Shown here piece after piece: positions 5,754 through 26,648 of a stretch of 64,000 nucleotides of DNA (position 1 is its first letter; each line of letters starts with the position of its first letter). The stretch is from assembly GCA_023393065.1 (NCBI GenBank), contig JAEWMX010000006.1, forward strand, positions 54,378 to 118,377, given 5' to 3'. The translations under genes were made by a program, and so were the position numbers. The stretch is from Bacillota bacterium. Its GTDB lineage: Bacteria > Bacillota_I > Bacilli_A > RFN20 > CAG-826. A model generated the notes under the pieces. It was not told the DNA's origin, made no database searches, and was given only the letters and a program-made list of their open reading frames with translations.

Positions 5754-5772
5754 ATAACGGAAGGAGAAACAT

Positions 5773-6858: not shown

Positions 6859-6866
6859 GTCGCACC

Positions 6867-8115: not shown

Positions 8116-9036
8116 CTAAGATTTGATGATTGTGCCCGTTTTTTCCAAGAATGCTTCTTTGGCTTTTTCAAGGGAACTGATGATTGCTGTTTTACCCTTT
8201 TTGGCTTTTAAAAACATGAGACAGGCTTGGACTTTTGGATACATGCTGCCTTTTGCAAAATAGCCTTCATCGGAGTATTTTTCAATTTCCGTCATCGAGG
8301 TGACTTCAAGGCGTTTTTCACCAGGTTTTTTATAGTTGATGTAGGCGTTATCGACGGCTGTGAGAATGACTAAGTAATCGGCATCGACCAAGGCCGCAAC
8401 TTTGGCGCTGGCGTAATCTTTGTCGATGACGGCCGCAATTCCTTCGAGACGATTATTTTTAACGATGACGGGAATTCCGCCTCCCCCGGCACAGATGACG
8501 ACATGCTGGTCTTTGATTAGAGAGAGAATCATCTCTTTTTCGACGACATCGACAGGAATGGGCGAGGCGACGACGCGGCGATATCCGCGACCGCTGTCCT
8601 CTTTCATGACATAGCCTTTTTCCGCGGCGATGATTTCCGCTTCTTCTTTACTATAAAATGCCCCGACCGGTTTGGTTGGATTTTGAAAGAGTGGATCATG
8701 CTCGTCGACGACCACTTGAGTGACGATCGTGGCAACGTGTTTTTGAATGTTTTGCTTTGCAAGTTCATTGTTAATGGCATTTTGCAGATGGAATCCGATA
8801 TATCCTTGGCTCATCGCTCCGCATTCAGGGAAAGGCATATCGGGAGTGGATCTTGATTCGGCAAAGGCTAAATTGATCATTCCGACTTGCGGACCATTTC
8901 CGTGGACGATGACAACTTCGTGTCCGGCTTTGATTAAAGCGACGATTGGCTCAGCGACATTGACTAGTAATTTCTTCTGTTCTTCGGCATTGTTTCCGAG
9001 GGCATTTCCCCCCAGCGAGACGACGTATCTGCTCAT
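8116..9036 (-). CDS. arcC: carbamate kinase
   Basis: 306 aa. MSRYVVSLGGNALG N-terminus and amino acid kinase fold motifs. Counterpart of yqeA in the E. coli ygeW neighbourhood. Confidence 0.9.
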   Translation of the reverse strand: MSRYVVSLGGNALGNNAEEQKKLLVNVAEPIVALIKAGHEVVIVHGNGPQVGMINLAFAESRSTPDMPFPECGAMSQGYIGFHLQNAINNELAKQNIQKHVATIVTQVVVDEHDPLFQNPTKPVGAFYSKEEAEIIAAEKGYVMKEDSGRGYRRVVASPIPVDVVEKEMILSLIKDQHVVICAGGGGIPVIVKNNRLEGIAAVIDKDYASAKVAALVDADYLVILTAVDNAYINYKKPGEKRLEVTSMTEIEKYSDEGYFAKGSMYPKVQACLMFLKAKKGKTAIISSLEKAKEAFLEKTGTIIKS

Positions 9037-9077
9037 GTTATTTTTCCTCTATACGCTCAAAATTGCGCAACTTAAAT

Positions 9078-9106
9078 ATTATACAACCCCCATGAATTAT
9101 CAACAA
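9078..9106 (-). promoter_or_regulatory. putative arcC promoter (minus strand TTGTTG-17-TATAAT)
   Basis: Hexamers read on the minus strand ~45 nt upstream of the arcC start codon. Confidence 0.35.
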
Positions 9107-9120
9107 TGATTTACCTTAAT

Positions 9121-9136
9121 GTGCAATTTATTGCAC
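9121..9136. promoter_or_regulatory. perfect inverted repeat GTGCAAT-TT-ATTGCAC in the arcC / mocA-xdh divergent region
   Basis: 16-bp palindrome centred ~60 bp upstream of the predicted arcC promoter -10. Loosely resembles Crp/Fnr (TGTGA-N6-TCACA) or Rex (TTGTGAA-N4-TTCACAA) half-sites. Confidence 0.35.
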
Positions 9137-9198
9137 GGAAAGTGTCATCTCGGGCTCGCTGGTGAGCAAGCGACTGCTCGCCGAGCGCAAATACGCGT

Positions 9199-9227
9199 TT
9201 GCATTGAAAGTCCCCAACATTTATAAT
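9199..9227 (+). promoter_or_regulatory. sigma-A-like promoter TTGCAT-17-TATAAT for the mocA-xdh operon
   Basis: Hexamers and 17-nt spacer read from the sequence. Leaves a ~85-nt leader. Confidence 0.4.
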
Positions 9228-9318
9228 TTAGTTGTTGTAAACACATCACGAAGTCGTCGCGGTTTGTCATACTCCAAGTCGTTAATGACAGGCCGCTATC
9301 TAACAAGGAGCGAACTTA

Positions 9319-9897
9319 ATGATCCACGGGATTATTCTGGCGGCCGGTTACTCAAGCCGAGCTGAGACGAATAAGATGCTATTGATGCACAAGGGTAAGT
9401 TTTTACTATCCCACGCGATTGATGGCATGCTTCCCTTCGTCGACGAAGTCATTGTCGTCACCGGACATTATCACAAAGAAATTTCCGAAGTCTTAAATAC
9501 TTACCAAAAAGTTACCTGTGTCTATAACCCGCGCTACGCTGAAGGAATGTTCACCTCCGTGCAAGCCGGTGTGACGAAGACAAAAGGTGATTTTTTTATT
9601 CTGCCCGGCGATTGTCCGTTTGTCACCGCCGACACCTATCAAAAAATGCTGTCTGGCACGAAGGATTTACGCGTTCCGAGCTTTCATAATCACACTGGCC
9701 ATCCCCTTTTTCTTAAGCAATCTCTTAAGGATGAATTGCTTAACGAACCAGCGGAGTCAAACCTCAAAGTATTTCGAAATCGCCACGATTATGAAATAAT
9801 CAAGACAGAGGATTCTCAAATCTTGATGGACATCGACACACCATCTGACTATCAAGCTTTAGATAAATTAGGAAAGGAAACCAAACATGGAAGCTAA
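9319..9897 (+). CDS. mocA: molybdenum cofactor cytidylyltransferase (MocA/MobA-like nucleotidyltransferase)
   Basis: MIHGIILAAGYSSRAETNKMLL matches the MobA-like NTP-transferase N-terminus. Sits directly upstream of xanthine-dehydrogenase-family subunits, as ygfJ does in E. coli. RBS AAGGAG upstream. Confidence 0.75.
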   Translation: MIHGIILAAGYSSRAETNKMLLMHKGKFLLSHAIDGMLPFVDEVIVVTGHYHKEISEVLNTYQKVTCVYNPRYAEGMFTSVQAGVTKTKGDFFILPGDCPFVTADTYQKMLSGTKDLRVPSFHNHTGHPLFLKQSLKDELLNEPAESNLKVFRNRHDYEIIKTEDSQILMDIDTPSDYQALDKLGKETKHGS

Positions 9898-10684
9898 TCG
9901 CTATTTACGACCTGCGACCTTGGAAGAAGCATATCAACTGTTGCTTCAAGACCCCAAAAACATTTTGCTCGGCGGAGGCCTTTGGCTTAAAAAGTCCACC
10001 CCTTCAGCCAACGCTCTCGTCGATTTGAGTGCCCTCGGGCTCGACGCAATTAAAGATCTCGGTGATCGCCTTGAAATTGGGGCGATGGTCACTCTTCGCG
10101 ACTTTGAGTTAAGTCCTCTTATTAAAGAGATATGCGGCGGAGTCTTAACTGAAGCGACCAGCCAAATTATGGGCGTCGCTTTTCGCAACGGCGCGACGAT
10201 CGGTGGTTCGGTTGCCGGAAGATTCCCTTTCTCAGATATAATCACGCCGTTACTTGCCCTTGACGCGCAACTAGTTTTTTATCCCCACAAAGAAATGAGC
10301 CTCGCTGATTTTTTGGCTCTTAAAGGACGCCTTAGCGATATCCTCACTCATGTTGTTATCAAAAAAAGCAAAGGGCGCTCGTTTTTTAAGAAAGTCAAGA
10401 CGACAGCCCTTGATTTTGCCGTAATCAATGTTGCCATCGCATCTATTGATGGCAATTATCGCGTAGCGATAGGCAGCCGTCCTTCGGTTGCGTCTTTAGC
10501 GTTAAAGACCATGGATTCAGTCAACAATAAAAAGAAATTATCTAAGGAGGAAGTTCTTAAAGCCGCCGAGATAGCGTCTGAAGAACTATCCTATGCATCG
10601 ACTAACGCCGCGAGTGCCGAATATCGAAAAGCACTCGTCAAAGCCTATGTCAAGCGCGGTCTTGAGGAGGTCAGCAAAGAATGA
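9887..10684 (+). CDS. molybdenum hydroxylase FAD-binding subunit (XdhB/CoxM family), triad 1
   Basis: 265 aa. FAD-binding molybdopterin-dehydrogenase pattern (ILLGGGLWL, AFRNGATIGGSVAG). Confidence 0.85.
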   Translation: MEANRYLRPATLEEAYQLLLQDPKNILLGGGLWLKKSTPSANALVDLSALGLDAIKDLGDRLEIGAMVTLRDFELSPLIKEICGGVLTEATSQIMGVAFRNGATIGGSVAGRFPFSDIITPLLALDAQLVFYPHKEMSLADFLALKGRLSDILTHVVIKKSKGRSFFKKVKTTALDFAVINVAIASIDGNYRVAIGSRPSVASLALKTMDSVNNKKKLSKEEVLKAAEIASEELSYASTNAASAEYRKALVKAYVKRGLEEVSKE

Positions 10685-11133
10685 GAGTCAATTTTGTACT
10701 AAACGGACGAAACGTTATTTTTGATATCGCTCCCGGCGAATATCTGGCTGACACTTTGCGCGCCAATCACATTTTATCCGTCAAAAAAGCTTGTGATGAA
10801 TCCGCTTGCGGCGCCTGTACCGTCTTAGTTGACGGCCGCCCAATTCTATCTTGCTCTTATTTGTCCGCTCGCGTCGAAGGACGGAGCGTGACGACCGTCG
10901 AAACCATTCAAGACGAAGTCAATCAAATCAGCGACTTCTTTTCAGATGAAGGCGCTGATCAATGCGGCTTTTGCAACACCGGTCTCGCCTTGACGATTTA
11001 TGCTTTGCAAAAGGAAATGCCAAATGCCAGCGATGACGAGATACGACACTTTGTGGCCGGCAATCTCTGCCGCTGCTCGGGCTATCAGGCGCAATTCCTC
11101 GCCATCAAACACTATTTGGAGGCCCATAGATGA
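10681..11133 (+). CDS. molybdenum hydroxylase 2Fe-2S iron-sulfur subunit (XdhC/CoxS family), triad 1
   Basis: 150 aa. Two [2Fe-2S] cysteine clusters (CDESACGACTV; CGFCNTG...CRCSGY). Confidence 0.9.
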   Translation: MRVNFVLNGRNVIFDIAPGEYLADTLRANHILSVKKACDESACGACTVLVDGRPILSCSYLSARVEGRSVTTVETIQDEVNQISDFFSDEGADQCGFCNTGLALTIYALQKEMPNASDDEIRHFVAGNLCRCSGYQAQFLAIKHYLEAHR

Positions 11134-13433
11134 AAACGGTAAATCACAAGACTCCTTCCGTCGACGGCAAGGGCATCATGATGGGGCGGGCCGCCTTTAC
11201 CGATGACTTCGCCGAACCCAATTCCCTAATCGTCAAAATGCTACGGAGCCCCCACGCTTTTGCTCGCATCAAAAACATTGACACTTCCAAAGCTCGTGCC
11301 CTTCCCGGCGTCGAGATTGTCTTGACCCACCACGACGTCCCTCGCAAGTCGTTTACGAGGGCCGGACAAGGCTATCCCGAACCATCTCCACACGATAAGT
11401 TCATCTTAGATGAATATGTTCGCTATGTCGGCGATGAAGTCGCTTGCGTCGCGGCCATAAACGAAAGCGTTGCCGACCAAGCTTTGAAACTAATCGAAGT
11501 TGAATACGAGGTCCTTGAACCTGTGCTCGACTTTGAAAAAGCCTTTGAACACCAGAGCGTCATTCACCCCGAAGAAGGAATTTGCGAGATGTTTCCCATC
11601 GGTTTTGAACCGAAGAAAAATGTCGCTGCTTCTTATCACATGCATGTAGGAGATGTCGATGCTGTCATGGCTAAATGCGATGTGGTTGTCGAAGAAACTT
11701 ATTACACTCAAGCTCAAGCTCATGCGATGCTTGAACCGCATTCGACAAATGCCCGTTTGGATTATCATAATCGCCTCGTTATCTACTCTTCGACGCAAAC
11801 GCCTTATCACGTGCGTCGCATCTTGTCACAAACCCTTGATTTACCAATCAGCAAAATTCGCTTGATTAAGCCGCGTGTCGGCGGTGGATTCGGTGGCAAA
11901 CAGGCCCTGCATGGCGAGTTCTTTGTCTCTCTAGTGACTTTAAGAACCAAAAAACCATCCAAGATGGTGTATTCGCGACAAGAAGTATTTGAGTCCTCAT
12001 ACACTCGTCACCCGATGCGCATCACCATGCGTCTGGGAGCTATGAAAGACGGAACGATACGAGCGATCGACTGCTATAGTTTGTCCGATACCGGAGCTTA
12101 TGGCGAACACGCTTTAACCGTCTTTATGATTACCGGATCAAAAGTCTTGCCTTTATATAATAAAGTCGATGCTGTCCGCTTCGGCGGCCGCGTCGTCTAC
12201 ACCAACCACGTATCCGCTGGCGCTTATCGCGGTTACGGCGCGATTCAAGGTAATTTCGCCCTTGAATCAGTCATTGATGTCCTGGCGAAGAAGCTCAACA
12301 TGGATCCTTTGGAATTGAGACGCAAAAACATGATGGAAGAAGGCGAGACGAGCCCAATTTTTGAAATCATGGGCGAAGGCACCGAAGGCACGGCCATGAA
12401 TATGGATACGTGCAAACTCCGCTATTGTCTCGATCGCGGCGCCGAACTGATAGGGTGGAAAGACAAATATCCATTTGTTCGAGTCGGCCCCCACAAAGTC
12501 CGCTCGGTCGGCATGGCCATTGCTATGCAAGGTAGCGGCATTCCCTACATCGATATGGCAGCCGCCACTATCAAACTAAATGATGATGGCTTTTATAACC
12601 TGACCGTCGGGGCGACCGATATCGGTCAAGGCAGCGATACGATACTCACGCAAATTGCCGCTGAAACCCTGATGACAACCATGGATAAAGTCGTGATTTA
12701 CTCATCTGATACCGACTTGACGCCGTTTGATGTCGGTGCCTACGCATCTAGTACGACATATGTTTCTGGCAATGCCGTGCTTAAGGCCGCGAAGAGCATG
12801 AAGACCATGCTGATTGAAGAGGCGGCCCATTATCTGAAAGTCTCCGTAGATGAAGTGACATTCGATGGCGAAAAGTTCGTCGCCAAAGATAAGATCATCA
12901 CTTTATCGGATATGGCTAATAAACTCTACTACAACGAAAATCAACACCAACTGACAGCGACCGAAAGTTATGTCGGTCACAAGTCGCCGCCGCCTTTTAT
13001 GGCCGGTTTTGTCGAAATCGAAATGGATACTGAAACTTATGAGTACAAAATACTTCATTATGTCAGCGTCGTCGATTGCGGCACGACAATTAATCCGATG
13101 CTCGCCCGCGGTCAAGTCGAAGGCGGCATCGTCCAAGGACTGGGCATGGCTTGCTTTGAAGAAGTCAAATACAGCAATCGCGGAAAGCTTAACAGCAACA
13201 GCTTCTTGTATTACAAGATTCCGACGATGCTCGACATCGATAAGTTAACTACCGAGTTTGCGGAAAGCTATGAGGAAAGCGGTCCTTATGGGGCTAAGTC
13301 AGTCGGTGAAATCGGAATTGACACGCCGCCGGCAGCCATTGCCAACGCGGTCGCCAATGCCGTCAACATTCGCATTAATAAATTACCAATCACTCCTGAA
13401 AAGATTTTTCAGGGGGCAAATCAAGAAAAATAA
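11130..13433 (+). CDS. molybdenum hydroxylase molybdopterin-binding large subunit (xanthine dehydrogenase family), triad 1
   Basis: 767 aa. Aldehyde oxidase/xanthine dehydrogenase a/b-hammerhead and MoCo-binding domain pattern (GGGFGGK, GQGSDT, EIG). Confidence 0.9.
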   Translation: MKTVNHKTPSVDGKGIMMGRAAFTDDFAEPNSLIVKMLRSPHAFARIKNIDTSKARALPGVEIVLTHHDVPRKSFTRAGQGYPEPSPHDKFILDEYVRYVGDEVACVAAINESVADQALKLIEVEYEVLEPVLDFEKAFEHQSVIHPEEGICEMFPIGFEPKKNVAASYHMHVGDVDAVMAKCDVVVEETYYTQAQAHAMLEPHSTNARLDYHNRLVIYSSTQTPYHVRRILSQTLDLPISKIRLIKPRVGGGFGGKQALHGEFFVSLVTLRTKKPSKMVYSRQEVFESSYTRHPMRITMRLGAMKDGTIRAIDCYSLSDTGAYGEHALTVFMITGSKVLPLYNKVDAVRFGGRVVYTNHVSAGAYRGYGAIQGNFALESVIDVLAKKLNMDPLELRRKNMMEEGETSPIFEIMGEGTEGTAMNMDTCKLRYCLDRGAELIGWKDKYPFVRVGPHKVRSVGMAIAMQGSGIPYIDMAAATIKLNDDGFYNLTVGATDIGQGSDTILTQIAAETLMTTMDKVVIYSSDTDLTPFDVGAYASSTTYVSGNAVLKAAKSMKTMLIEEAAHYLKVSVDEVTFDGEKFVAKDKIITLSDMANKLYYNENQHQLTATESYVGHKSPPPFMAGFVEIEMDTETYEYKILHYVSVVDCGTTINPMLARGQVEGGIVQGLGMACFEEVKYSNRGKLNSNSFLYYKIPTMLDIDKLTTEFAESYEESGPYGAKSVGEIGIDTPPAAIANAVANAVNIRINKLPITPEKIFQGANQEK

Positions 13434-13445
13434 AGGAGTCTTGTT

Positions 13446-14138: not shown

Positions 14139-14192
14139 GGAAGATAGAAATCGCCACCATGTCAACAATCATCGTTCAAAGAAAGGCTCTCC

Positions 14193-14678
14193 GTGGTTAA
14201 GATAATCAGCGGGAAAGTCGATTCTGGAAAAACGACGGAGATGATTCGGCGCTACGAAGCCACGCGTTCAGGCGATGGCTTCGTAGCCCTTAAAAAAATG
14301 AAGGGGAACGATATTTACGGATATTGCATTCGACGCCTTGGCAACGATCGTTCGCTCATGTGGATGATTCATCAAAAACACTATCAGGACGACTTTAAGA
14401 ACCATAGTAAGTTCGGTCCTTATTACCTCAATCTCGACGTTTTGCATCTGATGGAATCCGATGTCGATGAGTTTATCGCAAAAAACATCGCCCCCATCTT
14501 CCTCGACGAAATTGGAATCCTCGAACTTAATGGCGGAGGCTATCACAACATTTTGAAGAAACTATTAGCAAGCGGTCTCAATCTCGTCATCGCCGTCCGC
14601 GAAGACCTCGTCAAACCCATCGCGAATTACTTCGCTATCAAAGACTATGAACTGATACAAGTTCAAAGAGAGGAGTAG
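14193..14678 (+). CDS. small P-loop NTPase (MobB-like; candidate molybdenum hydroxylase maturation accessory protein)
   Basis: GTG start. Walker A at residues 6-14 (ISGKVDSGKTT). 161 aa. Context similar to yqeC/mobB-type accessory genes. Family assignment is tentative. Confidence 0.5.
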   Translation: MVKIISGKVDSGKTTEMIRRYEATRSGDGFVALKKMKGNDIYGYCIRRLGNDRSLMWMIHQKHYQDDFKNHSKFGPYYLNLDVLHLMESDVDEFIAKNIAPIFLDEIGILELNGGGYHNILKKLLASGLNLVIAVREDLVKPIANYFAIKDYELIQVQREE

Positions 14679-14682
14679 AACC

Positions 14683-18379: not shown

Positions 18380-18382
18380 CGA

Positions 18383-20476
18383 ATGTTCGATCCGAAGAAA
18401 TCAACACCGAAAGTCGACCACGAAGAAAAGTGCTCCGGCCAAGCCCAATATGTCTCGGACATCGTTTTAGACGACATGCTCTATGCTAAGACGGTGCGCT
18501 CCACGATTGCTCGAGGATATATTCGCGCGATTGGCATTCCCACCCTTCCTCGCGGTTATCACATCGTCGACCACCGCGATGTCGTCAAAGAAAATTATGT
18601 CAAAATGATTTTTAATGACTGGCCCGTTTTTACCGTCGACCGCGTCAACTACATCGGCGAACCGATCATGCTCGTGGTCGGTCCCGACAAGCGCGTCATC
18701 GACGAAATCATCTCGGAAATTAAAATTGATTACGAAGAGGAGACGCCGGTTTTTGATTATTCAAAAAGCGTCGTTCACAAATCTTTCACCAAAGGTGATT
18801 TGAAAGCGACGAGCAAAGATGCCGTTCGCGTCATCAAAGAAACTTTTAATACTGGATATCAAGAGCAAGCGTACATTGAACCGCAAGGCATGCTCGCCTA
18901 TTTAGAAGAGGGCGGCAAAGTTACTTTAGTCGGTTCGATGCAGTGTCCCTATTATATAAAAAACGCCGTCATCAACACTCTGGGATATCCCGAGGATAAG
19001 GTGCGCGTCATTCAACCCGCCGTCGGAGGCGCTTTTGGCGGCAAAGAAGAATTTCCTTCGACGACCGCCTGCCAACTCGCGACGGCTGTCGTCAAAATCA
19101 AGAAGCCGATTAAGATGATTTTCGAACGCGAAGAGGATATGCTCGTCACGACGAAGCGCCATCCTTCGACGACGACCCTCGAAGTTCTCATCGATAAGAA
19201 CAATAAAGTGCTGGGGATTAAAGCCCATGTCAGCTTAGACGCGGGGGCCTACATCGGTTTAAGCGGTGTCGTCTTGTCGCGTTCGATGCTCGCTGTCACC
19301 AATGCCTATACCATCAATAATCTCGATGTCAGCGGTGATGTCTATATTACGAACACCGTTCCGACCGGAGCCTTTCGCGGCTTTGGTTCGCCGCAGATGA
19401 TCTTTGCCATCGAAATGTTTATGAATCACCTCGCCAAAGATTTAGGCCTTGATCCATTCGAGTTTCGTCTTAATCACTTAGTAAAACAAGGTGATCTAAC
19501 CTCGACATCCGGAATCTTCCGCGACCCGATCATCATGAAAGATATGATTGCTAAAGCCGCTGAGATTTCCGACTATCACAACAAGACTAAAGAATATGCC
19601 AAACCAGGCGTTTACAAAGGAATCGGCATGAGTTGGTTCTTACACGGGTGCGGTTTTACCGGCGATGGTGAGAGCACGCACATTAAGGCCAAAGTCCGAC
19701 TCGTCAAAGACGAGCAAGACTATGTTCGTTTGCATATCGCCGCCGTCGATATGGGGCAAGGCGCTAAAACCTCGCTTAAGCGCATCGTCGCCATGACCTT
19801 AGGTATCGACAACGAAAAAGTAATCTTTGATTATCCCGACACCGATTTGGCACCTGATTCGGGGCCGTCCGTCGCATCGCGCACGGTGATGATTGTCGGC
19901 GGTCTATTAGCCCGAGCCGCTCAAAATCTCAAAGACAACTGGAAGAAAGGCGAACGCCAGGAAATCATCGAGCACTACAAACAACCGGATTACATCGAAT
20001 GGGATGAAAGCAAACTGCGCGGAGACGCTTATCCGGCTTATTCGTGGGGTGTCAATGTCGTCGAAGTTGAAGTCTCTCCGATTTCTTACGAAGTCGAGCT
20101 CAAAGGTATTTGGAGCGTCTACGATGTCGGCAAAGCCATCGATGAAAGAATGCTCGTCGGACAAGCCGACGGAGGCATTACCCAAGGCGTAGCCTATGGC
20201 TATCTAGAAGTTATGCGCCACGAAAACGGCAAACTGAAACAGAAGAATTTAACTGATTACATCATACCGACATCGATGGATATGCCGCCGATGGAAACCG
20301 TGATAATGGATAATCCGTTTGCCTATGGTCCGTATGGCGCGAAAGGCGCTGGCGAACTGACCTTAGTCGGAGGGGCGCCGGCTGTCGCTTTAGCGATTGA
20401 AAATGCCATTAAACGCCGCATCAATCGCATTCCCGCCACCCCTGAACACATCATGGAGTTATTAAACAATGAATAA
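18383..20476 (+). CDS. molybdenum hydroxylase molybdopterin-binding large subunit, triad 2
   Basis: 697 aa. Paralogous to 11130..13433 (GGAFGGK, MGQGAKT, GELT motifs). Confidence 0.9.
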   Translation: MFDPKKSTPKVDHEEKCSGQAQYVSDIVLDDMLYAKTVRSTIARGYIRAIGIPTLPRGYHIVDHRDVVKENYVKMIFNDWPVFTVDRVNYIGEPIMLVVGPDKRVIDEIISEIKIDYEEETPVFDYSKSVVHKSFTKGDLKATSKDAVRVIKETFNTGYQEQAYIEPQGMLAYLEEGGKVTLVGSMQCPYYIKNAVINTLGYPEDKVRVIQPAVGGAFGGKEEFPSTTACQLATAVVKIKKPIKMIFEREEDMLVTTKRHPSTTTLEVLIDKNNKVLGIKAHVSLDAGAYIGLSGVVLSRSMLAVTNAYTINNLDVSGDVYITNTVPTGAFRGFGSPQMIFAIEMFMNHLAKDLGLDPFEFRLNHLVKQGDLTSTSGIFRDPIIMKDMIAKAAEISDYHNKTKEYAKPGVYKGIGMSWFLHGCGFTGDGESTHIKAKVRLVKDEQDYVRLHIAAVDMGQGAKTSLKRIVAMTLGIDNEKVIFDYPDTDLAPDSGPSVASRTVMIVGGLLARAAQNLKDNWKKGERQEIIEHYKQPDYIEWDESKLRGDAYPAYSWGVNVVEVEVSPISYEVELKGIWSVYDVGKAIDERMLVGQADGGITQGVAYGYLEVMRHENGKLKQKNLTDYIIPTSMDMPPMETVIMDNPFAYGPYGAKGAGELTLVGGAPAVALAIENAIKRRINRIPATPEHIMELLNNE

Positions 20477-20942
20477 GATTAGATTTAATTTAAATGGACA
20501 AGATGTCGCCGTCGAACTCAATCCGAGCTTGCGCTTGCTTGATGTTTTACGCGATCACTTCCATCTGACTGGCACCAAAGAAGGGTGCGGTGAAGGCGAA
20601 TGCGGAGCGTGTTCGGTTTTAATTAACGGTCGCGTCGTCAACAGTTGTTGCTTTCCACTGGCTAATGCCAATGGCAAAAAAATAATGACAATCGAAGGGC
20701 TTGCCGCCACCGAGCGCTACCAAGTGCTTAAAGATGCCTTTCACATCGAAGGTGGTTCGCAATGTGGCATTTGCACACCGGGGATGATCATGGCGGCCGA
20801 AAGCCTTCTTTCAATGAATCCTCATCCGACCGATGAAGAAATTCGAATCGGCCTCTCCGGCAATTTGTGCCGCTGCACCGGTTACAACATGATTATCAAG
20901 GCGGTTAAAGTCGCCGCCAAGTTAGGAGAAGGTTTATGGTAA
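20469..20942 (+). CDS. molybdenum hydroxylase 2Fe-2S subunit, triad 2
   Basis: 157 aa. CGEGECGACSV and CGICTPG...CRCTGY motifs. Confidence 0.9.
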   Translation: MNKIRFNLNGQDVAVELNPSLRLLDVLRDHFHLTGTKEGCGEGECGACSVLINGRVVNSCCFPLANANGKKIMTIEGLAATERYQVLKDAFHIEGGSQCGICTPGMIMAAESLLSMNPHPTDEEIRIGLSGNLCRCTGYNMIIKAVKVAAKLGEGLW

Positions 20943-21784
20943 GACACATTATTCCTAACAATCTCAAAGAAGCCCTTATTTATTTAACCGAGGGTCCTTT
21001 TCACATCATGGCCGGCGGTACGGATTTGATGATTCAAAGGCGCAGCTCGGCTGGCACACCACCGAAATTTGCCAAAGATGTGCTCTACATCGCAAATCTC
21101 GAAGAGCTTAATTACATCAAAAAAGACGAAGAGCACAATTGCTTGAGAATTGGCGCGGCGACTAAACTTGAAGATATCTGCCATCACGATGATGTTCCGG
21201 CCTTGCTTAAAGATGTCATCCGCGAGATTGGAAGCCCCGGCATTCGCCATAGTGGAACCTTGGGAGGAAACATCGCAAATGCATCTCCTGCGGGAGACAG
21301 TCTCGTCGCTTTATATCTCTTTGACGCCGAAGTCGTTTTGTTAAGCGTCGATGGCGAGCGCACCATGCTTCTTAAAAACTTTATCACCGGTGTTCGCCGC
21401 ATCGACCTTCACGCTAACGAGCTGATCAAAGAAATCATCATTCCAAATGTTTTAATGACTAATTATAAATGGTATAAAGTCGGAGGGCGACGCGCAGATT
21501 CGATCAGCAAAGTCTCTTTCGCCGGATTATATCTAGTCAATTTTGGATTAGTTGCCGATATCCGTTTTGCTTTCGGCTCCGTTTCAGCGACCGTGGCGCG
21601 CAGCCTCGAACTGGAAAATTCATTGAAAAACCGGCCTATCGAGCAAGTTATCGCTGAATTGCCGCGTATTTTAGAAGAGACAAATAAGTTGATTTCGCCG
21701 ATTGATGATCAGCGCTCAAACAAAATTTATCGTCGCAAAGTAGCAAACAATATCATGGAACGCTTTATTAAAAGCATGAAGTAA
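20936..21784 (+). CDS. molybdenum hydroxylase FAD-binding subunit, triad 2
   Basis: 282 aa. FAD_binding_5-like motifs (IMAGGTDLM, HSGTLGGNIANASPAGD). Confidence 0.85.
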   Translation: MVRHIIPNNLKEALIYLTEGPFHIMAGGTDLMIQRRSSAGTPPKFAKDVLYIANLEELNYIKKDEEHNCLRIGAATKLEDICHHDDVPALLKDVIREIGSPGIRHSGTLGGNIANASPAGDSLVALYLFDAEVVLLSVDGERTMLLKNFITGVRRIDLHANELIKEIIIPNVLMTNYKWYKVGGRRADSISKVSFAGLYLVNFGLVADIRFAFGSVSATVARSLELENSLKNRPIEQVIAELPRILEETNKLISPIDDQRSNKIYRRKVANNIMERFIKSMK

Positions 21785-21797
21785 AGAAGGTGTGATA

Positions 21798-23042
21798 ATG
21801 CATAAGTTCAAAGGTTATCGCTGCACATTATGCGGCAAGACTTATAGCCCTGATGAGGCGCTTTATACCTGTCCTTCTTGTGGCGAAAAAGGCATTTTGG
21901 ATGTCGAATACGATTATGAGAAATTAAAGAATACGATAACGCTTGATTACTTTAAAAATAATCGCGATTATTCGATGTGGCGCTACGCCCCGCTCATGAG
22001 CATGCCGGACGATCACATCAAGGAGATGCTCAGAATTGGCTGGACGCCACTATATAAATCAAAGCGCCTCGCCGAATATCTAGGTATCAAGGAGCTCTAC
22101 ATTAAAGATGAAGGTCTGAATCCCAGCGGTTCAACTAAAGACCGAGCCAGCGGCGTCGCCGTCTTAAAAGCCATCGAAGCGGGGGCGCAAACCATTTCCT
22201 GCTCATCGACAGGCAACGCTGCATCAAGCTGTGCATGCCAAGCCGCGCACATGGGCTTAAAGAGCGTTATTTTCGTGCCCAAAAGAGCGCCGATTGGCAA
22301 GTTGACGCAACTATCCATTTACGGAGCGACAGTCATCTGCGTCGACGGCGATTACAAAGACACGTATAACTTATCGCGTAAAGCGATTGAAACTTATCAT
22401 TGGTATAACCGCAATGCGGCGATTAACCCGCACATGGTCGAAGGCAAAAAAACCGTCGCTTTAGAAATTGCCGAGCAACTCGATTTCGCACCGACTGACT
22501 GGGTGGCGATTTCCGTGGGAGACGGCTGTAGCGTCGGTGGTGTTTACAAGGGTGTCTTCGATTTGTATCAATTAGGCCTCATCAAACGCATTCCCAAAAT
22601 TCTCGGAGTGCAGAGTTCAGGATGTGCGCCGTTCGTGACGGCGTTTGAAAATAACGAACCGCTTAAGGAAGCCGATGAAAACACTTTGGCCGACTCTATC
22701 GCCGTCGGCATTCCCCGCAACCCGAATAAAGGCTTAAATGCCATCAAAAAGAGCGGCGGGCACTTTATAAGTGTCAGCGATAAGCATATACTAGAGAGTA
22801 TGGCGCTTTTAGGGCGCCTGGAAGGCATCTTCGGAGAACCGGCTGGCGTGACTGCGCTAGCGGGCGTCGAAGAGGCTCTGCATAGAGGTGTAATCAGACC
22901 CGATGAGTCGGTGACATTCATTGTTACCGGCAACGGATTAAAAGACCCGACCAATGCGCAAAAAGCAATCAGTCCACCCATCCTTCTCAAGCCCGATATC
23001 GAGGCCCTAAACAAGTATTTAAAAGAAAAAGGAGTCAAATAA
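21798..23042 (+). CDS. fold-type II PLP-dependent enzyme, threonine-synthase-like, with N-terminal Cys4 zinc ribbon
   Basis: CTLCGK...CPSCGEKG zinc ribbon. PLP-lysine motif NPSGSTKDRAS plus SSTGNAASS, closely patterned on ThrC (NPTGSFKDRG...STGNTSAS). ATG 21798 chosen over GTG 21792, which lies inside the RBS AAGGTG. Confidence 0.75.
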   Translation: MHKFKGYRCTLCGKTYSPDEALYTCPSCGEKGILDVEYDYEKLKNTITLDYFKNNRDYSMWRYAPLMSMPDDHIKEMLRIGWTPLYKSKRLAEYLGIKELYIKDEGLNPSGSTKDRASGVAVLKAIEAGAQTISCSSTGNAASSCACQAAHMGLKSVIFVPKRAPIGKLTQLSIYGATVICVDGDYKDTYNLSRKAIETYHWYNRNAAINPHMVEGKKTVALEIAEQLDFAPTDWVAISVGDGCSVGGVYKGVFDLYQLGLIKRIPKILGVQSSGCAPFVTAFENNEPLKEADENTLADSIAVGIPRNPNKGLNAIKKSGGHFISVSDKHILESMALLGRLEGIFGEPAGVTALAGVEEALHRGVIRPDESVTFIVTGNGLKDPTNAQKAISPPILLKPDIEALNKYLKEKGVK

Positions 23043-23044
23043 AC

Positions 23045-24412
23045 ATGACAAAAATTCCCTTTGGACCGACCTATGATGAGATGCTTCATCCGGATCACAT
23101 CGACCCGGAAATTCGCGCGAAAGCCCTAAAGGCTAAATACGCCGATGAGCTCGATCCCATCAATCTTTTCAACATCAATTGGAAAGATGATAATGGCCAG
23201 GTCCGCAAAATTGTTCTCCCCAAAGCTCTGACCGGCGTCGAAGCCAACATCGTCGTGCTCTTAGGAAAGCAATTCCCCTCTGGTTCCCACAAAGTCGGAC
23301 CAGCTTATTCAACCCTGATTGAAGGATGCATCGATGGAGATATCATTCCAGGCAAACACACGATTTTAGGACCATCGACCGGTAACTTTGGCATCGGCGT
23401 TTCCTACATCGCCAACTTGATGAAATATCAAGCCATCGTCATCATGCCCGACAACATGTCGAAAGAGCGCTATGATCGCATTCAGCGCTATGGAGCCAAA
23501 CTCGATTTGACACCAGGTTCCGAATCCGATGTCATCTTGACTCTTGAAAGAACGTACGAACTTAAGAAAAATCCTAATTATCGCACTCTCGCCCAATTTG
23601 AATTGATGCCGAACTATCGCTTTCATCGCCACGTGACTGGCAACAGTTGTGTCGAAGCCGTTAAAGGCGTCGGCAATGGCCGTATCGCCTGCTTCGCCTC
23701 GGCGCCAGGAAGCGCGGGCACATTAGCAGCCGGCGACGGCATCAAAGCCGTCTTCCCCGAATGTAAAATTGCCGCCCTCGAACCTTATGAGTGCTCAACT
23801 CTTACCAATGGTGGACGCGGCCAGCATCGCATCGAAGGCATCGGCGATAAGATGTGCACCCTGATTCACAATATCATTACGACCGATTTCATCGCTTTAA
23901 TCAAAGATGACGATTCGGTTCGCGGTCTTAAAATTATCCATGACGCCCCACAGGTTTTAGTCCGCCACGGCGTCGACAAAAAGGTCGCCGAAGGCATGCG
24001 TGAATTATTTGGCGTATCCGGCATTTGCAACATCTTAGGCGCCATTAAAATGGCGAAGCACTTGAGACTAGGTCCTGGAGATAACGTTGTGACGATTGCC
24101 ACCGACGGCTACGATCGCTATGAGAGCGTCCTTGAACTGCTCGAAAAGCGCGAGCTCGAAACGGCCGACTATGTCTTGGAACGCTGGTATAAGGATATCT
24201 TCCTCGGCGCCGAAGACGCCTACATCGAAGATGCTCGCTTGCCGAAAGTCAAAGAGCGCCTCTTCAAGCAGAAGGAAAACGACTGGCTAAAATTTGGCTA
24301 TACGCAGCAATATCTCGATGCGATGAGACATCCCGAATTCTGGGAAGCCGAATATCACAAAGTCTTCGAATATGACGAGAAGATCAAAAAAATGAGAGGA
24401 AAAGCACTATGA
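23045..24412 (+). CDS. fold-type II PLP-dependent enzyme (CysK/TrpB-like core with ~100-aa C-terminal extension)
   Basis: 455 aa. [10 protein letters not shown] (PLP lysine) and [13 protein letters not shown] glycine loop. The region after ~330 aa has no CysK counterpart. Confidence 0.7.
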
Positions 24413-25626
24413 ACAAAAAAATCCCTTTTAGCGAAATCCTAAAAAAAGCCGAATCTTACAAAAAAGAGATGACGGCCTTTCTCCGCGACATGATTGCCCT
24501 ACCGAGCGAATCGTGCCAGGAAAAAGAAGTTATTCACCGCATCAAACAAGAGATGGAAAAAGTTGGTTTCGACCGTGTCGTCATCGATAAGATGGGTAAT
24601 GTCTTAGGCTACATCGGCCACGGCAAACACCTCATTGGCATGGACGCTCATATCGACACCGTCGGCATCGGTGACATTCGCAACTGGACTTTTGATCCAT
24701 ACAAGGGCTACGAAGACGATGTCCACATCGGCGGTCGTGGCGCCAGCGACCAAGAAGGCGGCATGGCCGCGATGGTCTACGCTGGGAAAATCATTAAGGA
24801 TTTAGGTCTTGAAGACGACTACACACTGGTTGTTACGGGCACCGTCCAAGAAGAAGACTGCGACGGACTCCCTTGGCAATATATCATTGAGGAAGACAAA
24901 GTTCGCCCCGAATTCGTCGTGATTACCGAACCGACCTCGTGCCGCATCTATCGCGGCCATCGCGGAAGGATGGAAATCAAAGTGACGACGCGCGGCATCT
25001 CTTGCCATGGCAGCGCCCCGGAAAGAGGCGACAATGCCATCTATAAGATGGGACCGATTATCGGCGAGATCAAACAACTCAATGAGCGGTTGAAATTCGA
25101 TCCGTTCCTCGGCAAAGGCACGATGACGATCAGCGAGATCTTTCACACCTCGCCATCGCGCTGCGCGGTTGCCGACAGCTGCTGGATCTCCATCGACCGC
25201 CGTTTGACGATGGGCGAGACGCATTTAGGCGCCCTTGACGAAATCAGAGCTTTACCCTCGGTTAAAGCTGCTGGTGCCACCGTCGAAATGTACATGTATG
25301 AACGTCCGTCATGGACGGGCTTAGTCTATCCTACCGAGTCCTATTTCCCGACGTGGGTTATTCCCGCCGACCATGTCATTTGTACGTCCTCGGTCGAAGC
25401 TTATAAAGGCTTATTTAGCAAAGACCCGGTCGTTGACAAATGGACCTTCTCGACGAATGGCGTAACCATCATGGGACGCTATGGCATTCCCTGCATCGGC
25501 TTTGGGCCCGGTGACGAAAAAGAGGCACATGCGCCAAACGAAAAGACGAGAAAAGAAGATCTCGTCATCGCCGCTGCGCTCTATGCCGCCATTCCTTTGA
25601 TGTATGTTAGTCAACTCAAAAAATAA
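24409..25626 (+). CDS. ygeY: M20 family metallopeptidase/amidohydrolase, YgeY-type
   Basis: 405 aa. Typical M20 metal-binding His/Asp/Glu pattern ([15 protein letters not shown]). Conserved context next to ygeW. Confidence 0.8.
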
Positions 25627-25637
25627 GGAGAAAATGA

Positions 25638-26648
25638 ATGAGTAAATTGTTCTACAAAAAAACGATGAAACCCCTCTTCAAAGGTCGTCACTTCATCACC
25701 CTTGAAGAATGGACCAAAGATGAAATCGACAAGCTGCTTGAAGTATCCTACGATTTAAAAAACAAATTCTATAAGAACATTCCGACCCCATATCTCGAGA
25801 ACAAAACCGGCTTCTTGATGTTCTTTGAACAATCGACGAGAACGAGAAACTCGATGGAATCAGGTCTCGCCCAGCTCGGCGGACACGCGACGTTCCTCGA
25901 CACGTCAATGATGCAGATTTCACACGGCGAAAGCGCGAAAGACACCGCCGTCATCCTCTCTTCTTTCGGACACGGCATCGCCTGCCGCTACTGCAATTAC
26001 GGCGTCGGCAATAAATACATTCGCGAGATGGCTGCGCATTCGACTGTGCCGGTCATGAATTTGCAATGCGACCTGTATCACCCGATGCAAGCCTTGGCCG
26101 ACTTGATGACCATTCAGGAAGTCTTTACGACGACCAAACATCTCAAAGTATCAATTATATGGGCCTACGCCGAAAGCCATAAAAAACCGATCAGCGTCCC
26201 TCTTTCACAAATTCTGCTCTTCCCTCGCTATGCGATGGATGTCACCCTCGCTTATCCGGAAGGCTATGACCTCCCAGACTGGGCGATTGAAAAAGCTAAG
26301 AAAAACGCTGAAGAAAATGGTGGCTCTTTCCGCATTACGCATGACATGAAAGAAGCCTTTAAAGACGCCGATGTCGTCATTCCGAAGAACTGGGGCAGCT
26401 GGGTTAAGAACCAGTCGACCGTCGTCGTCGATGATTACATCAAGACGCTAAAAGACTGGAAGTGCACCGAAGAGATGATTAAACTCGCCAGCCCGAATGT
26501 CAAATACATGCACGCTCTTCCGGCTGACCGCGGTAACGAAGTTGAAGACTCCGTCATCGACGGCCCGCACTCGATCGTCTATCAGGAAGCCGAAAATCGC
26601 TTGCACACCGCCAAAGCTGTTATGGCGATGACGATGGGCGACAAGTAA
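25638..26648 (+). CDS. ygeW: YgeW-type (knotted) carbamoyltransferase
   Basis: 336 aa. Carbamoyl-phosphate-binding STRTR motif (FEQSTRTRNSMESG) and HALP-like HxLP. RBS AAGGAG 8 nt upstream of ATG 25638. Confidence 0.85.
   Translation: MSKLFYKKTMKPLFKGRHFITLEEWTKDEIDKLLEVSYDLKNKFYKNIPTPYLENKTGFLMFFEQSTRTRNSMESGLAQLGGHATFLDTSMMQISHGESAKDTAVILSSFGHGIACRYCNYGVGNKYIREMAAHSTVPVMNLQCDLYHPMQALADLMTIQEVFTTTKHLKVSIIWAYAESHKKPISVPLSQILLFPRYAMDVTLAYPEGYDLPDWAIEKAKKNAEENGGSFRITHDMKEAFKDADVVIPKNWGSWVKNQSTVVVDDYIKTLKDWKCTEEMIKLASPNVKYMHALPADRGNEVEDSVIDGPHSIVYQEAENRLHTAKAVMAMTMGDK

Follow-up and report, generated by a model that had tools for sequence, protein, structure and literature searches.

A block of 17 genes at positions 8116-26648 of the window (the whole stretch of DNA that was analysed, 64,000 nucleotides in length) probably encodes the fermentation of purine bases by way of the 2,8-dioxopurine pathway, with YgeX (diaminopropionate ammonia-lyase) displaced by a threonine-synthase-derived enzyme, designated ThrC*, and a long CysK-like enzyme. 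Judged from sequence, a probability of about 60% is attached to this reading. The reductive uric-acid (2,8-dioxopurine) pathway was reconstituted in vitro by two groups in 2025 (Liu et al. 2025; Li et al. 2025), and the view taken in the initial annotation, that such biochemistry is only partially resolved in any organism, is outdated. Since the cluster matches the reconstituted pathway, its core is of a known kind; the new part would be the replacement of YgeX by ThrC*, in which the last enzyme appears to have been displaced by a non-orthologous one.

Organization of the gene cluster

The block is real and consists of one minus-strand carbamate kinase gene and a 16-gene plus-strand operon (9319-26648) that is delimited by a promoter-like site on its 5' side and a strong terminator on its 3' side (Table 1). 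No match to an Rfam family was obtained in the divergent intergenic region, even at E<=1. The flanking genes are unrelated to the block, being serC/serA-like upstream and GNAT and ABC genes downstream. As the same gene order was found again in dozens of independent MAGs, the arrangement is not due to chance. The host is an uncultured Bacilli bacterium of gut- or digester-type.

Families were assigned by comparing scores with curated-model cut-offs and by percent identity to the E. coli enzymes. All of the gene types listed in the initial annotation were found, with qualifications arising from these scores and identities, and its reading of the block as a variant anaerobic urate/purine cluster, of the ygeW-xdhD type known from E. 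coli, is supported. Four genes within the block were absent from that list: those of the membrane protein, the P-loop NTPase, and the ThrC-like and CysK-like enzymes. The SsnA-like, hydantoinase-like and MocA-like proteins, both Mo subunits and the carbamoyltransferase all score below the curated family cut-offs.

Table 1. Features of the gene cluster and its boundaries (positions in the window).
Feature	Position	Strand	Evidence
Carbamate kinase, ArcC/YqeA type, divergent	8116..9036	-	TIGR00746 383 bits, above 358 cut-off; 53% identity to EcYqeA
Divergent intergenic control region	9037..9318	.	holds promoter-like site
Best promoter-like site	9198-9227	+	within 9037..9318
MocA-like molybdenum-cofactor cytidylyltransferase	9319..9897	+	TIGR03310 143 bits, below 186 cut-off; 32% identity to EcMocA
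Triad 1 FAD subunit, YgfM-like	9887..10684	+	31% identity to EcYgfM (best E. coli match)
Triad 1 2Fe-2S subunit	10681..11133	+	XdhC_XDHase model 135 bits; 41% identity to EcXdhC
Triad 1 Mo subunit (Mo1), XdhD type	11130..13433	+	37% identity to EcXdhD (485 bits), above XdhA
Orphan 7-helix membrane protein, 230 aa	13446..14138	+	predicted model
P-loop NTPase	14193..14678	+	PF03266
Hydantoinase/dihydropyrimidinase-like cyclic amidohydrolase	14683..15990	+	TIGR02033 214 bits vs 393 cut-off; 29% identity to EcHyuA
Divergent SsnA-type amidohydrolase	15963..17291	+	365 bits vs 444 cut-off; 31% identity to EcSsnA
PydA/PreA-like FMN reductase (DHO_dh), two [4Fe-4S] motifs	17288..18379	+	PF01180 and Fer4 domains
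Triad 2 Mo subunit (Mo2)	18383..20476	+	25% identity to EcXdhA
Triad 2 2Fe-2S subunit	20469..20942	+	pucE model 177 bits
Triad 2 FAD subunit	20936..21784	+	XdhB-type models 147-148 bits
ThrC* (thrC416), PLP enzyme	21792..23042	+	N-terminal Zn ribbon; phosphate site absent
Long CysK-like PLP enzyme, 455 aa	23045..24412	+	predicted beta-substituted-alanine-synthase fold
YgeY M20 hydrolase	24409..25626	+	TIGR03526 692 bits vs 321 cut-off; 73% identity to EcYgeY
Shortened YgeW-type carbamoyltransferase (mini-YgeW)	25638..26648	+	39% identity to EcYgeW
Terminator-like hairpin, 12-bp stem and T run, operon end	26666-26693	+	strongest; directly 3' of last gene

Proposed pathway

The assignment of steps draws on homology (25-73% identity) to enzymes characterised elsewhere. 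Hypoxanthine or xanthine would be oxidised to urate by triad 2, and urate reduced to 2,8-dioxopurine by triad 1, which is of the XdhD/YgfM type. A PydA-like reductase of the UacX type would then dearomatise 2,8-dioxopurine, after which the SsnA-like and hydantoinase-like amidohydrolases would open both rings to give 2,3-diureidopropionate. One ureido group would be phosphorolysed by mini-YgeW and the resulting carbamoyl phosphate used by carbamate kinase to form ATP, while YgeY would hydrolyse the other ureido group to leave 2,3-diaminopropionate (DAP). Hypoxanthine gives up four electrons on its way to urate and the pathway's two reductions take up as many, a balance that may explain why both Mo enzymes are encoded in one operon. 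The assignment is also favoured by an adenine deaminase gene that is embedded in the homologous cluster of 30 related loci, and by a CDA-fold deaminase adjoining that cluster in 24. In Hujiaoplasma zrk29, DNA plus RNA induces a similar cluster.

Molybdenum enzymes

Neither Mo1 nor Mo2 reaches any curated family cut-off. Both large subunits have their top scores in purine hydroxylase families and not with CO dehydrogenase, which supports the initial annotation. The triad 1 FAD subunit is likewise matched by XDH-family FAD-subunit models at scores below their cut-offs. Mo1 and EcXdhD have two XdhD-specific insertions in common, one of which is a loop with a Glu aligned to EcXdhD E606 that is invariant in all 18 relatives; triad 1 may thus be the urate reductase. 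Mo2 retains the equivalents of the bovine XDH active-site residues E802, R880, F1009, T1010 and E1261; they are kept throughout the 66 relatives, one of which has a gap at E1261. This canonical active site suggests that triad 2 is the xanthine dehydrogenase proper. Since L053 and other loci of the Clostridia type have no Mo enzyme in view but the Mo2 type, the assignment of urate reduction to triad 1 is tentative. The Mo enzymes of the pathway are selenium-dependent in C. sporogenes. The selenium link drawn in the initial annotation is not visible here, as yqeB, yqeC and selD are all missing from the 64-kb window.

Ring reduction and ring opening

The C. difficile uricolytic cluster holds a PydA/PreA-like enzyme of the same architecture as the reductase described here, named UacX (Li et al. 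2025). The reductase would stand in for YgfK, which occupies this slot in some related loci. The earlier expectation that ring reduction is carried out by a non-orthologous enzyme thus stands, in a variant already described. The same expectation for ring opening was not borne out, since the two enzymes are divergent homologues of SsnA and HyuA. SsnA models rank first for the former (365 and 340 bits, both below their cut-offs) with the next family at 160 bits, and the protein is a candidate for opening the ring of reduced 2,8-dioxopurine. The hydantoinase-like protein falls below every curated cut-off and is assigned the HyuA role provisionally.

Predicted removal of the ureido groups and ATP formation

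The carbamoyltransferase earlier named YgeW is indeed a YgeW relative, but it is shortened and misses the YgeW cut-offs as well as those of OTC. It is about 60 residues shorter than EcYgeW and lacks several of the YgeW insertions, while the YgeW-specific motifs are present; unlike OTC, it has no SMG loop. PGAP labels the protein as OTC. From these features, mini-YgeW is predicted to phosphorolyse a ureido group to carbamoyl phosphate. Experiments have since demonstrated (Liu et al. 2025) that carbamoyl phosphate yields ATP through carbamate kinase in this pathway, as stated initially.

Proposed displacement of YgeX

The search for YgeX covered the window, where it was not found, and the surroundings of anchor genes out to 10 kb. 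ThrC* accompanies the CysK-like gene in 76 of 80 genome loci, and YgeX lies within 10 kb in none of the 80; the pattern spans four cluster architectures, some with canonical YgeW, HyuA and YgfK. When canonical YgeW served as the anchor, the 80 metagenome loci comprised 37 with YgeX, nine with ThrC* and none with both. Altogether, ThrC* and YgeX never occur together among approximately 120 informative related loci. In two of these (L122 and L124), ThrC* is directly upstream of ygeY-ygeW-yqeA, which is the position of ygeX in canonical loci. The initial annotation was correct in that the fate of the C3 fragment differs from the known route, but it did not identify the two PLP genes that would be responsible.

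ThrC* retains the PLP lysine and, at 203 bits, exceeds the cut-off of the generic thrC model TIGR00260 (167 bits). At three positions, which are presumably the O-phosphohomoserine phosphate-site residues of threonine synthase, all 76 relatives have A, A and M/L where three of three solved threonine synthases have T, S and R. ThrC* would deaminate DAP in the place of YgeX. The pathway is thought to give D-configured DAP, and YgeX accepts the D form. If the enzyme derived from ThrC is L-specific, a partner able to racemise or convert the D isomer would be required, and such a division of labour would be attractive.

The CysK-like enzyme is the most conserved protein in the cluster. In addition to its predicted fold, it retains the PLP lysine, the phosphate loop and most of the Asn loop (Thr is replaced by Phe at the last position), and it has conserved extensions at both termini. 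Its score of 130 bits is far from the cut-offs for cysKM (344) and cysK (351). JGI labels the protein 'cysteine synthase'. The gene is separated from that of ThrC* by 2 nt and overlaps ygeY by 4 nt. DAP and albizziin are both beta-substituted alanines, and the CysK-like enzyme would act with ThrC* on such a compound of the pathway, either DAP or a ureido-alanine, with pyruvate as the end product, formed in a direct reaction or by way of L-serine and its dehydratase. Genes for L-serine dehydratase are found inside the cluster or adjacent to it in L063, in 14 further genome loci (15 in all) and in L173, a metagenome locus. The two named loci have them immediately adjacent to the CysK-like gene, and L063 also has an SHMT gene. 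As both serine dehydratase and SHMT take part in the classical clostridial fermentation of purines (glycine-serine-pyruvate) as well, their presence is no proof that serine is made from DAP. A related long CysK-like subfamily is found together with YgeX in three loci, which argues that the CysK-like enzyme is not simply a component of the YgeX substitute. In Caldilineaceae, the genes for ThrC* and the CysK-like enzyme also form a stand-alone pair in surroundings that lack purine genes, arguing for a substrate more general than pathway-derived DAP.

Alternative explanations

That stand-alone pair would also suit a general role as maturation factors for the Mo hydroxylases, with the C3 fragment passed to a distant YgeX or excreted. 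The pair might, for example, make or mobilise a sulfur or selenium donor derived from cysteine or selenocysteine. Sulfur nucleophiles are used by CysK-family enzymes, the pair flanks yqeC-mocA-yqeB in L063, thiosulfate induced the cluster of Xianfuyuplasma zrk13, a cultured carrier, and the selenium dependence in C. sporogenes is in line with such a function. This explanation is nonetheless unlikely, as E. coli and C. sporogenes both carry out the pathway without the pair, ThrC* strictly alternates with YgeX and is able to hold its slot, the pair is mostly found among catabolic genes and not with mocA or XdhC-like genes, and the window has none of the three selenium markers. It is quite improbable that the two genes are ordinary threonine and cysteine synthases that are in the operon by happenstance, with DAP as the product or a distant ygeX used. 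The thrC416 score, the JGI name and the zrk13 authors, who placed the 'threonine synthase' and 'cysteine synthase' genes of their cluster under amino-acid metabolism, all favour this; the replaced phosphate-site residues, the low CysK score, the conserved extensions and the retention of the pair in four purine-cluster architectures, packed tightly with ygeY, do not.

The least probable alternative is that the substrate of all or part of the operon is not urate but a pyrimidine or another N-heterocycle, degraded by a reductive Pyd-type route in which the PydA-like reductase is joined by the dihydropyrimidinase-like and M20 hydrolases. The best models for 14683-15990 (dihydropyrimidinase/D-hydantoinase) and 17288-18379 (dihydroorotate/dihydropyrimidine dehydrogenase) are compatible with it, clostridial PydA shares the reductase architecture, and the Mo subunits fall short of the curated cut-offs. 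Purines are favoured by the close identity of YgeY to its E. coli counterpart, by SsnA being clearly the best family for 15963-17291, by the XdhD-specific indels in Mo1, by the occurrence of this type of PydA-like enzyme in the uricolytic cluster of C. difficile, and by the adenine deaminase embedded in homologous clusters.

Membrane protein and P-loop NTPase

The predicted model of the membrane protein resembles the S components of ECF transporters. The P-loop NTPase probably has an accessory or maturation role; its gene comes just after an XdhC/CoxI gene, absent from the window, in the related locus L100.

Organization of the cluster

Seventeen genes were identified at positions 8116-26648 of the window by ORF listing and family scans. 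The boundaries proposed in the initial annotation are correct since a promoter-like site, a terminator-like hairpin and unrelated flanks frame the block. Directly upstream (3112-8048, plus strand) are genes for glutamate dehydrogenase, a DUF1015 protein, a serC-like class-V aminotransferase and a serA-like 2-hydroxyacid dehydrogenase, and downstream are GNAT and ABC-transporter genes. Every gene type named in that annotation is present, but the list was incomplete. Four genes were omitted, namely those for a membrane protein of 230 aa, a P-loop NTPase, a PLP enzyme derived from threonine synthase (ThrC-like) and a 455-aa PLP enzyme resembling cysteine synthase (long CysK-like).

Features of the cluster and identities to proteins of the E. 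coli K-12 ygeW-xdhD region
Feature	Position	Strand	Identity to E. coli protein	Remarks
Carbamate kinase	8116-9036	-	53% (YqeA)	Lone minus-strand gene of the block
Divergent intergenic region	9037-9318			282 nt between carbamate kinase and the plus-strand genes
Best plus-strand promoter-like site of the intergenic region	9198-9227	+		
Sixteen plus-strand genes	9319-26648	+		Packed tightly or overlapping
MocA-like protein		+	32% (MocA)	
Triad 1, FAD subunit	9887-10684	+	31% (YgfM)	
Triad 1, 2Fe-2S subunit	10681-11133	+		
Triad 1, Mo subunit (Mo1)	11130-13433	+	37% (XdhD)	485 bits, above XdhA
Membrane protein	13446-14138	+		
P-loop NTPase	14193-14678	+		
Hydantoinase-like protein	14683-15990	+	29% (HyuA)	
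SsnA-like protein	15963-17291	+	31% (SsnA)	
PydA-like reductase	17288-18379	+		
Triad 2, Mo subunit (Mo2)	18383-20476	+	25% (XdhA)	
Triad 2, 2Fe-2S subunit	20469-20942	+		
Triad 2, FAD subunit	20936-21784	+		
ThrC-like protein	21792-23042	+		
Long CysK-like protein	23045-24412	+		
YgeY	24409-25626	+	73% (YgeY)	
Carbamoyltransferase	25638-26648	+	39% (YgeW)	
Terminator-like hairpin	26666-26693	+		Strongest in the scanned stretch; directly 3' of the last gene

At gathering thresholds no Rfam family matched in the cluster, and 9030-9330 gave no hit even at E ≤ 1; riboswitch or leader control was rejected as a result. The intergenic region does contain a GC-rich imperfect hairpin (about 9150-9190) between two promoters, which no Rfam family matches. 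The operon includes no gene for a regulator; a TetR gene separates ygeW from the CysK-like gene in Clostridia-type relatives.

Correspondence with the 2,8-dioxopurine pathway

The initial annotation interpreted the cluster as a variant of anaerobic urate/purine degradation, and this outline is retained. Its statement that the biochemistry is only partially resolved in any organism is outdated, as two 2025 preprints have reconstituted the route in vitro (Li et al., bioRxiv 10.1101/2025.05.19.654654; Liu et al., bioRxiv 10.1101/2025.04.24.650524). The first step, reduction of urate to 2,8-dioxopurine, is carried out by XdhD or, in C. sporogenes, by DOPDH (Li et al. 2025; Liu et al. 2025). 2,8-Dioxopurine is in turn the substrate of a second reductase, YgfK or, in C. 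difficile, the PydA-like UacX (Li et al. 2025). In these reconstitutions, SsnA and HyuA open the rings to give 2,3-diureidopropionate, YgeW removes one ureido group as carbamoyl phosphate from which YqeA makes ATP, YgeY removes the second to give 2,3-diaminopropionate (DAP), and YgeX converts DAP to pyruvate.

We consider it very probable (roughly 85%) that the cluster encodes this reductive uric acid pathway. Two other readings, that the operon belongs to a pyrimidine pathway or that biosynthetic genes are co-located by chance, were also weighed and ranked low. The core would be of an already known kind, the 2,8-dioxopurine pathway plus a xanthine dehydrogenase (XDH), with its final enzyme apparently displaced by two uncharacterised PLP families.

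The E. coli cluster (ygeW-ygeX-ygeY-hyuA-yqeA...ygfK-ssnA-ygfM-xdhD) shares the inferred chemistry and the way in which ATP is made from carbamoyl phosphate. In contrast to E. coli, the window lacks YgeX and YgfK, has a separate Fe-S subunit where that of E. coli XdhD is fused, has a shortened YgeW, places an XDH triad inside the operon, and adds genes for the ThrC-like protein, the long CysK-like protein, an ECF-S-like membrane protein and an NTPase. The selenium markers proposed in the initial annotation (yqeB, yqeC and selD) were not found anywhere in the 64-kb window by tblastn with the E. coli proteins. The C. difficile uricolytic cluster has a reductase like that of the window, with a PF01180 FMN domain and Fe-S clusters but no FAD/NADPH domain (Li et al. 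2025). However, C. difficile uses the hydrolase UacY in place of YgeW and YqeA and has no YgfM, whereas in the window a carbamoyltransferase, carbamate kinase and FAD subunits have all been retained. Unlike the window, C. difficile presumably keeps YgeX, since YgfK and YgeW/YqeA are the only points at which it is described as differing from E. coli.

The two molybdenum enzymes

Both Mo subunits were aligned with E. coli XdhA and XdhD. Mo1 has two XdhD-specific insertions, one of which is the loop carrying a glutamate aligned to E606 of E. coli XdhD, a residue proposed to orient urate (Li et al. 2025). This glutamate is invariant in 18/18 Mo1 relatives. Mo1 scores below the TIGR03313 cut-off and its FAD subunit is closest to YgfM. 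In Mo2, the residues that we take to correspond to E802 (in GGKEE), R880 (in FRGFG), F1009-T1010 (in GFT) and E1261 of bovine XDH are kept in 66/66 relatives, the E1261 position being gapped in one. In Mo1 and E. coli XdhD, the E802 position is instead occupied by glutamine and F1009-T1010 by Gly-Ile. Given the XdhD insertions and E606 equivalent of Mo1 and the XDH residues of Mo2, triad 1 is assigned a predicted role in urate reduction and triad 2 in xanthine/hypoxanthine oxidation. The assignment is further supported by an adenine deaminase gene between the triad 2 FAD gene and the ThrC-like gene in 30 related loci, and by a CDA-fold deaminase gene just downstream in a further 24. A caveat on the assignment is that Clostridia-type loci such as L053 (L numbers denote related genome or metagenome loci) show only the Mo2 type within 21 kb.

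The signature of DOPDH is given as F1009V and A1078T/S (Liu et al., bioRxiv 10.1101/2025.04.24.650524). Neither Mo subunit of the window has threonine or serine at the position aligned to A1078; for this reason the signature was dropped as a marker here, and the C. sporogenes enzyme looks like a third lineage.

With respect to cofactor genes, only a short XdhC/CoxI gene was seen in the related loci L015, L085 and L100, upstream of the NTPase gene. The order in L100 is Mo1, membrane protein, XdhC/CoxI (10635-11471 of that locus), NTPase and hydantoinase. At the equivalent position the window has only a 54-nt spacer (14139-14192), and therefore it lacks the XdhC-like cofactor-insertion chaperone that its relatives carry. 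Together the membrane protein and NTPase resemble a putative uptake or maturation sub-block, the former being an orphan whose model resembles ECF-transporter S components and which is tied to molybdoenzyme operons.

Ring reduction, ring opening and the carbamoyltransferase

The reductase combines PF01180 with two [4Fe-4S] motifs, an architecture of the UacX type. The initial annotation had listed a PreA-like Fe-S flavoenzyme and had supposed that ring reduction is carried out by a non-orthologous enzyme. The variant is already described as UacX from C. difficile. YgfK occupies the reductase slot in four related loci (L068, L076, L083 and L086).

Family profiles proposed for the remaining steps were only partly matched. 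YgeY (692 bits, cut-off 321) and carbamate kinase pass their curated cut-offs. SsnA models are the best hits for the SsnA-like protein by more than 200 bits, yet at 365 and 340 bits they fall below cut-offs of 444 and 455, and the hydantoinase-like protein is a generic cyclic amidohydrolase below all curated cut-offs. The carbamoyltransferase scores 214 and 198 bits against YgeW models with cut-offs of 453 and 500, and 266 bits against an ornithine carbamoyltransferase (OTC) model with a cut-off of 281.

OTC is nevertheless the name that PGAP and JGI give to this protein. In an alignment of the window sequence with E. coli YgeW, the canonical L053 YgeW, E. coli ArgI and an Izemoplasma homologue, the YgeW-specific motifs NLQCD..HP.Q, WAY..S..KP.SVP and PK.W are present and several YgeW insertions are absent. 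The ornithine-binding SMG loop is also absent, with PKNWGSW in the window where ArgI has DVWVSMG. From these features the protein is predicted to be a shortened YgeW, and the OTC name, rejected here, is probably a systematic misannotation. The JGI name "cysteine synthase" for the 455-aa protein and "threonine synthase" from the generic thrC model (as in the Xianfuyuplasma genome discussed below) are probably misannotations as well.

The ThrC-like and long CysK-like proteins

The ThrC-like protein (416 aa) is a clear threonine synthase homologue with an E-value of 1e-66 to PDB 2zsj. It has the PLP lysine and S-T-G-N loop of solved enzymes of the Thermus, Aquifex, Mycobacterium and Bacillus type (PDB: 1uim, 2zsj, 2d1f, 6cgq), from which it differs by an added N-terminal CxxC...CxxC domain and by replacements at three positions. 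T88, S155 and R160 (T. thermophilus numbering), which we take to form the O-phosphohomoserine phosphate site, are Thr, Ser and Arg in 3/3 solved threonine synthases aligned but Ala, Ala and Met/Leu in 76/76 relatives from related loci. Threonine synthase was rejected as an identity on this basis. The Zn ribbon formed by the CxxC...CxxC motif and the PLP lysine are conserved in the family. YgeX (DpaL) is likewise a fold-type II PLP enzyme, with only ~25% identity to the ThrC-like protein. Unlike YgeX, the ThrC-like protein descends from threonine synthase, bears the Zn ribbon and is accompanied by the long CysK-like protein.

The long CysK-like protein retains the PLP lysine, glutamine and phosphate loop of CysK, and its Asn loop reads STGNF. 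An AlphaFold model (pLDDT = 88.5) searched with Foldseek gave generic matches only, to CysK, O-ureido-serine synthase and beta-cyanoalanine synthase (TM ≤ ~0.84 normalised to the target). While the fold is shared with the beta-substituted alanine synthase family (CysK, beta-cyanoalanine synthase, DcsD), identity in structural alignments is 25-30%, and the protein has conserved helical extensions of ~55 N-terminal and ~90 C-terminal residues and a 12-residue insertion after the HRIEGIGD motif. A score of 130 bits against cysteine synthase cut-offs of 344-351, together with a length of 455 aa against a ~300-aa architecture, led to rejection of CysK/CysM. No curated family covers the protein, nor does NCBIfam cover any of ten full-length relatives at 28-45% identity. 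Rosetta-stone fusions were uninformative: apart from an ABC-ATPase fusion, the longer homologues resulted from duplicated or merged gene calls. The long CysK-like protein is the most conserved of the cluster at 75-76% identity between this Bacilli MAG and Clostridia-type clusters, compared with 32-70% for the other pathway proteins.

Proposed replacement of YgeX

A scan of species-representative genomes with the long CysK-like protein matched 599 stretches, of which 584 encode relatives, and 80 loci were compared. These came from Izemoplasmatales, Acholeplasmatales, rumen and gut Erysipelotrichaceae/Bacilli MAGs and some other Bacillota. The order hyd-ssnA-reductase-Mo2-FeS2-FAD2-ThrC-like-CysK-like-ygeY-carbamoyltransferase is kept in most loci with enough flanking sequence. 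The ThrC-like gene is present in 76/80, the remaining four being cut by contig ends, and YgeX was found in none of the 80 within 10 kb. The pair persists where YgfK replaces the PydA-like reductase, and in differently ordered Clostridia-type clusters with a canonical YgeW (66% identity to E. coli), HyuA (40%) and YgfK.

A metagenome scan used the canonical L053 YgeW as the query so that clusters were not selected by way of the pair. Among 80 loci, YgeX was present in 37, the ThrC-like protein with its A/A/(L,M,T) signature and Zn ribbon in nine, and both in none; by hand calculation, this absence of overlap has a chance of ~0.002 if the loci are treated as independent, which they are not. In L122 and L124, the ThrC-like gene lies directly upstream of ygeY-ygeW-yqeA, the position of ygeX in canonical loci. 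A long CysK-like gene (486-498 aa, 36-38% identity to that of the window) accompanies the ThrC-like gene in all six metagenome loci with enough sequence. This subfamily also accompanies YgeX in three loci (L116, L130 and L173); in these and in L162 it sits in YgeX-bearing canonical uric acid clusters.

Since the ThrC-like protein is never found with YgeX and can occupy its slot, it would be an alternative to YgeX, and we lean slightly towards its being a functional substitute. The long CysK-like protein would be a separate recurrent component, obligatory with the ThrC-like protein and occasional with YgeX. In Caldilineaceae the pair (33-41% and 43-54% identity to the window proteins) is a stand-alone two-gene unit among housekeeping genes, which counts against a role confined to the pathway. 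The CysK-like gene of Litorilinea adjoins a gene of the luciferase family, proposed to supply the F420-dependent reductase of Chloroflexota clusters (Li et al., bioRxiv 10.1101/2025.05.19.654654).

The stand-alone pair was seen in Chloroflexota-type contigs (L089, L090, L092-L094 and L096-L099) with no purine genes nearby and no Rfam match upstream. In two syntenic groups it is a few kb from cysS-rlmB, and the purine cluster of L036 also ends next to cysS-rlmB.

Product of the last step

Fe-S L-serine dehydratase genes are directly beside the CysK-like gene in L063, which also carries SHMT, and in L173, where the CysK-like gene directly follows the beta and alpha subunit genes. They directly follow the carbamoyltransferase gene in 14 Bacilli loci. 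A glycine-cleavage system lies a few kb downstream in four or five Izemoplasma loci. These neighbours would fit formation of L-serine from a beta-substituted alanine of the pathway; equally compatible is that dehydratase and SHMT represent the classical glycine-serine-pyruvate branch of purine fermentation. The pathway intermediates are argued to be D-configured and YgeX accepts both DAP isomers (Li et al. 2025). The ThrC-derived enzyme may need a partner for D-DAP, which would explain the obligatory pairing.

A more speculative proposal, which we regard as doubtful in its entirety, is that the two proteins constitute an undescribed two-enzyme PLP module that would turn (D-)DAP or a ureido-alanine into pyruvate or L-serine through racemisation, hydrolytic beta-replacement or both, and would feed the recurrently adjacent L-serine dehydratase. 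Such a module would have taken the place of YgeX in hundreds of species, and would also work as a unit of its own in Chloroflexota. If true, this would be new chemistry on a threonine synthase scaffold without its phosphate site.

In L037, L056 and L059 (Izemoplasma-type, ~15.5-21 kb), lipoate-protein ligase and the glycine-cleavage system are 2-6 kb downstream; the T, PA and PB proteins were confirmed by Pfam, and an ORF of ~127 aa that lies between T and PA may encode the H protein. The genes directly upstream of the cluster in the window look like a serine biosynthesis operon, and the adjacency of serC- and serA-like genes to a cluster with a suspected serine link may or may not be meaningful.

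Published relatives and implications

Clusters with the same gene inventory, judged by annotation names only, are present in the wall-less Bacilli lineages that carry the window type of cluster: G4Z02_01105-01195 in Xianfuyuplasma coldseepsis zrk13 (Zheng et al. 2021, PMC8397711) and HF295_00920-01005 in Hujiaoplasma nucleasis zrk29 (PMC10470597). The names comprise XDH-related proteins, Fe-S protein, NTPase, nucleotidyltransferase, aminohydrolase, OTC, cysteine synthase and threonine synthase. In zrk13 the genes of one cluster rose together in expression with thiosulfate and in situ, and in zrk29 a similar cluster was induced by DNA plus RNA. The authors interpreted these as generic nucleotide and amino acid metabolism, and Wasmund et al. 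noted XDH and deaminase loci in Izemoplasmatales; none of these publications connects the cluster with the 2,8-dioxopurine pathway. In four papers on the urate pathway, Kasahara et al. and Liu et al. among them, no threonine synthase- or cysteine synthase-like genes are mentioned.

Kasahara et al. required five genes, ygeX among them, in their survey of gut and environmental urate degraders, and Liu et al. used seven query proteins including YgeX (bioRxiv 10.1101/2025.04.24.650524). With YgeX as a required marker, such surveys would miss or mis-score lineages with the ThrC-like/CysK-like variant, which include Izemoplasmatales, Acholeplasmatales, rumen and gut Bacilli and some Clostridia, with at least 584 matching stretches in the species-representative set. 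Apart from flagging "ornithine carbamoyltransferase" and "threonine synthase" as two likely misannotations, the analysis places two abundant PLP enzyme families without an assigned reaction at a defined point of a pathway that matters both medically (hyperuricaemia) and ecologically (turnover of extracellular DNA and purines). The candidate substrates are on sale and hence the hypothesis is directly testable.

Other features of the window

Positions 53105-55714 (plus strand) encode an 869-aa protein in which an Orn/Lys/Arg decarboxylase domain is fused to an agmatine deiminase (PAD_porph) domain. It may provide a one-protein route from arginine to N-carbamoylputrescine, a potential further source of carbamoyl phosphate for carbamate kinase. 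A lysine riboswitch (Rfam RF00168, 85.8 bits) is present at 1093-1262 (minus strand) upstream of a family-3 solute-binding protein gene (210-1025, minus strand), and two small AAA_33/KTI12-like P-loop kinase genes are arranged in tandem at 40814-41745 (plus strand).
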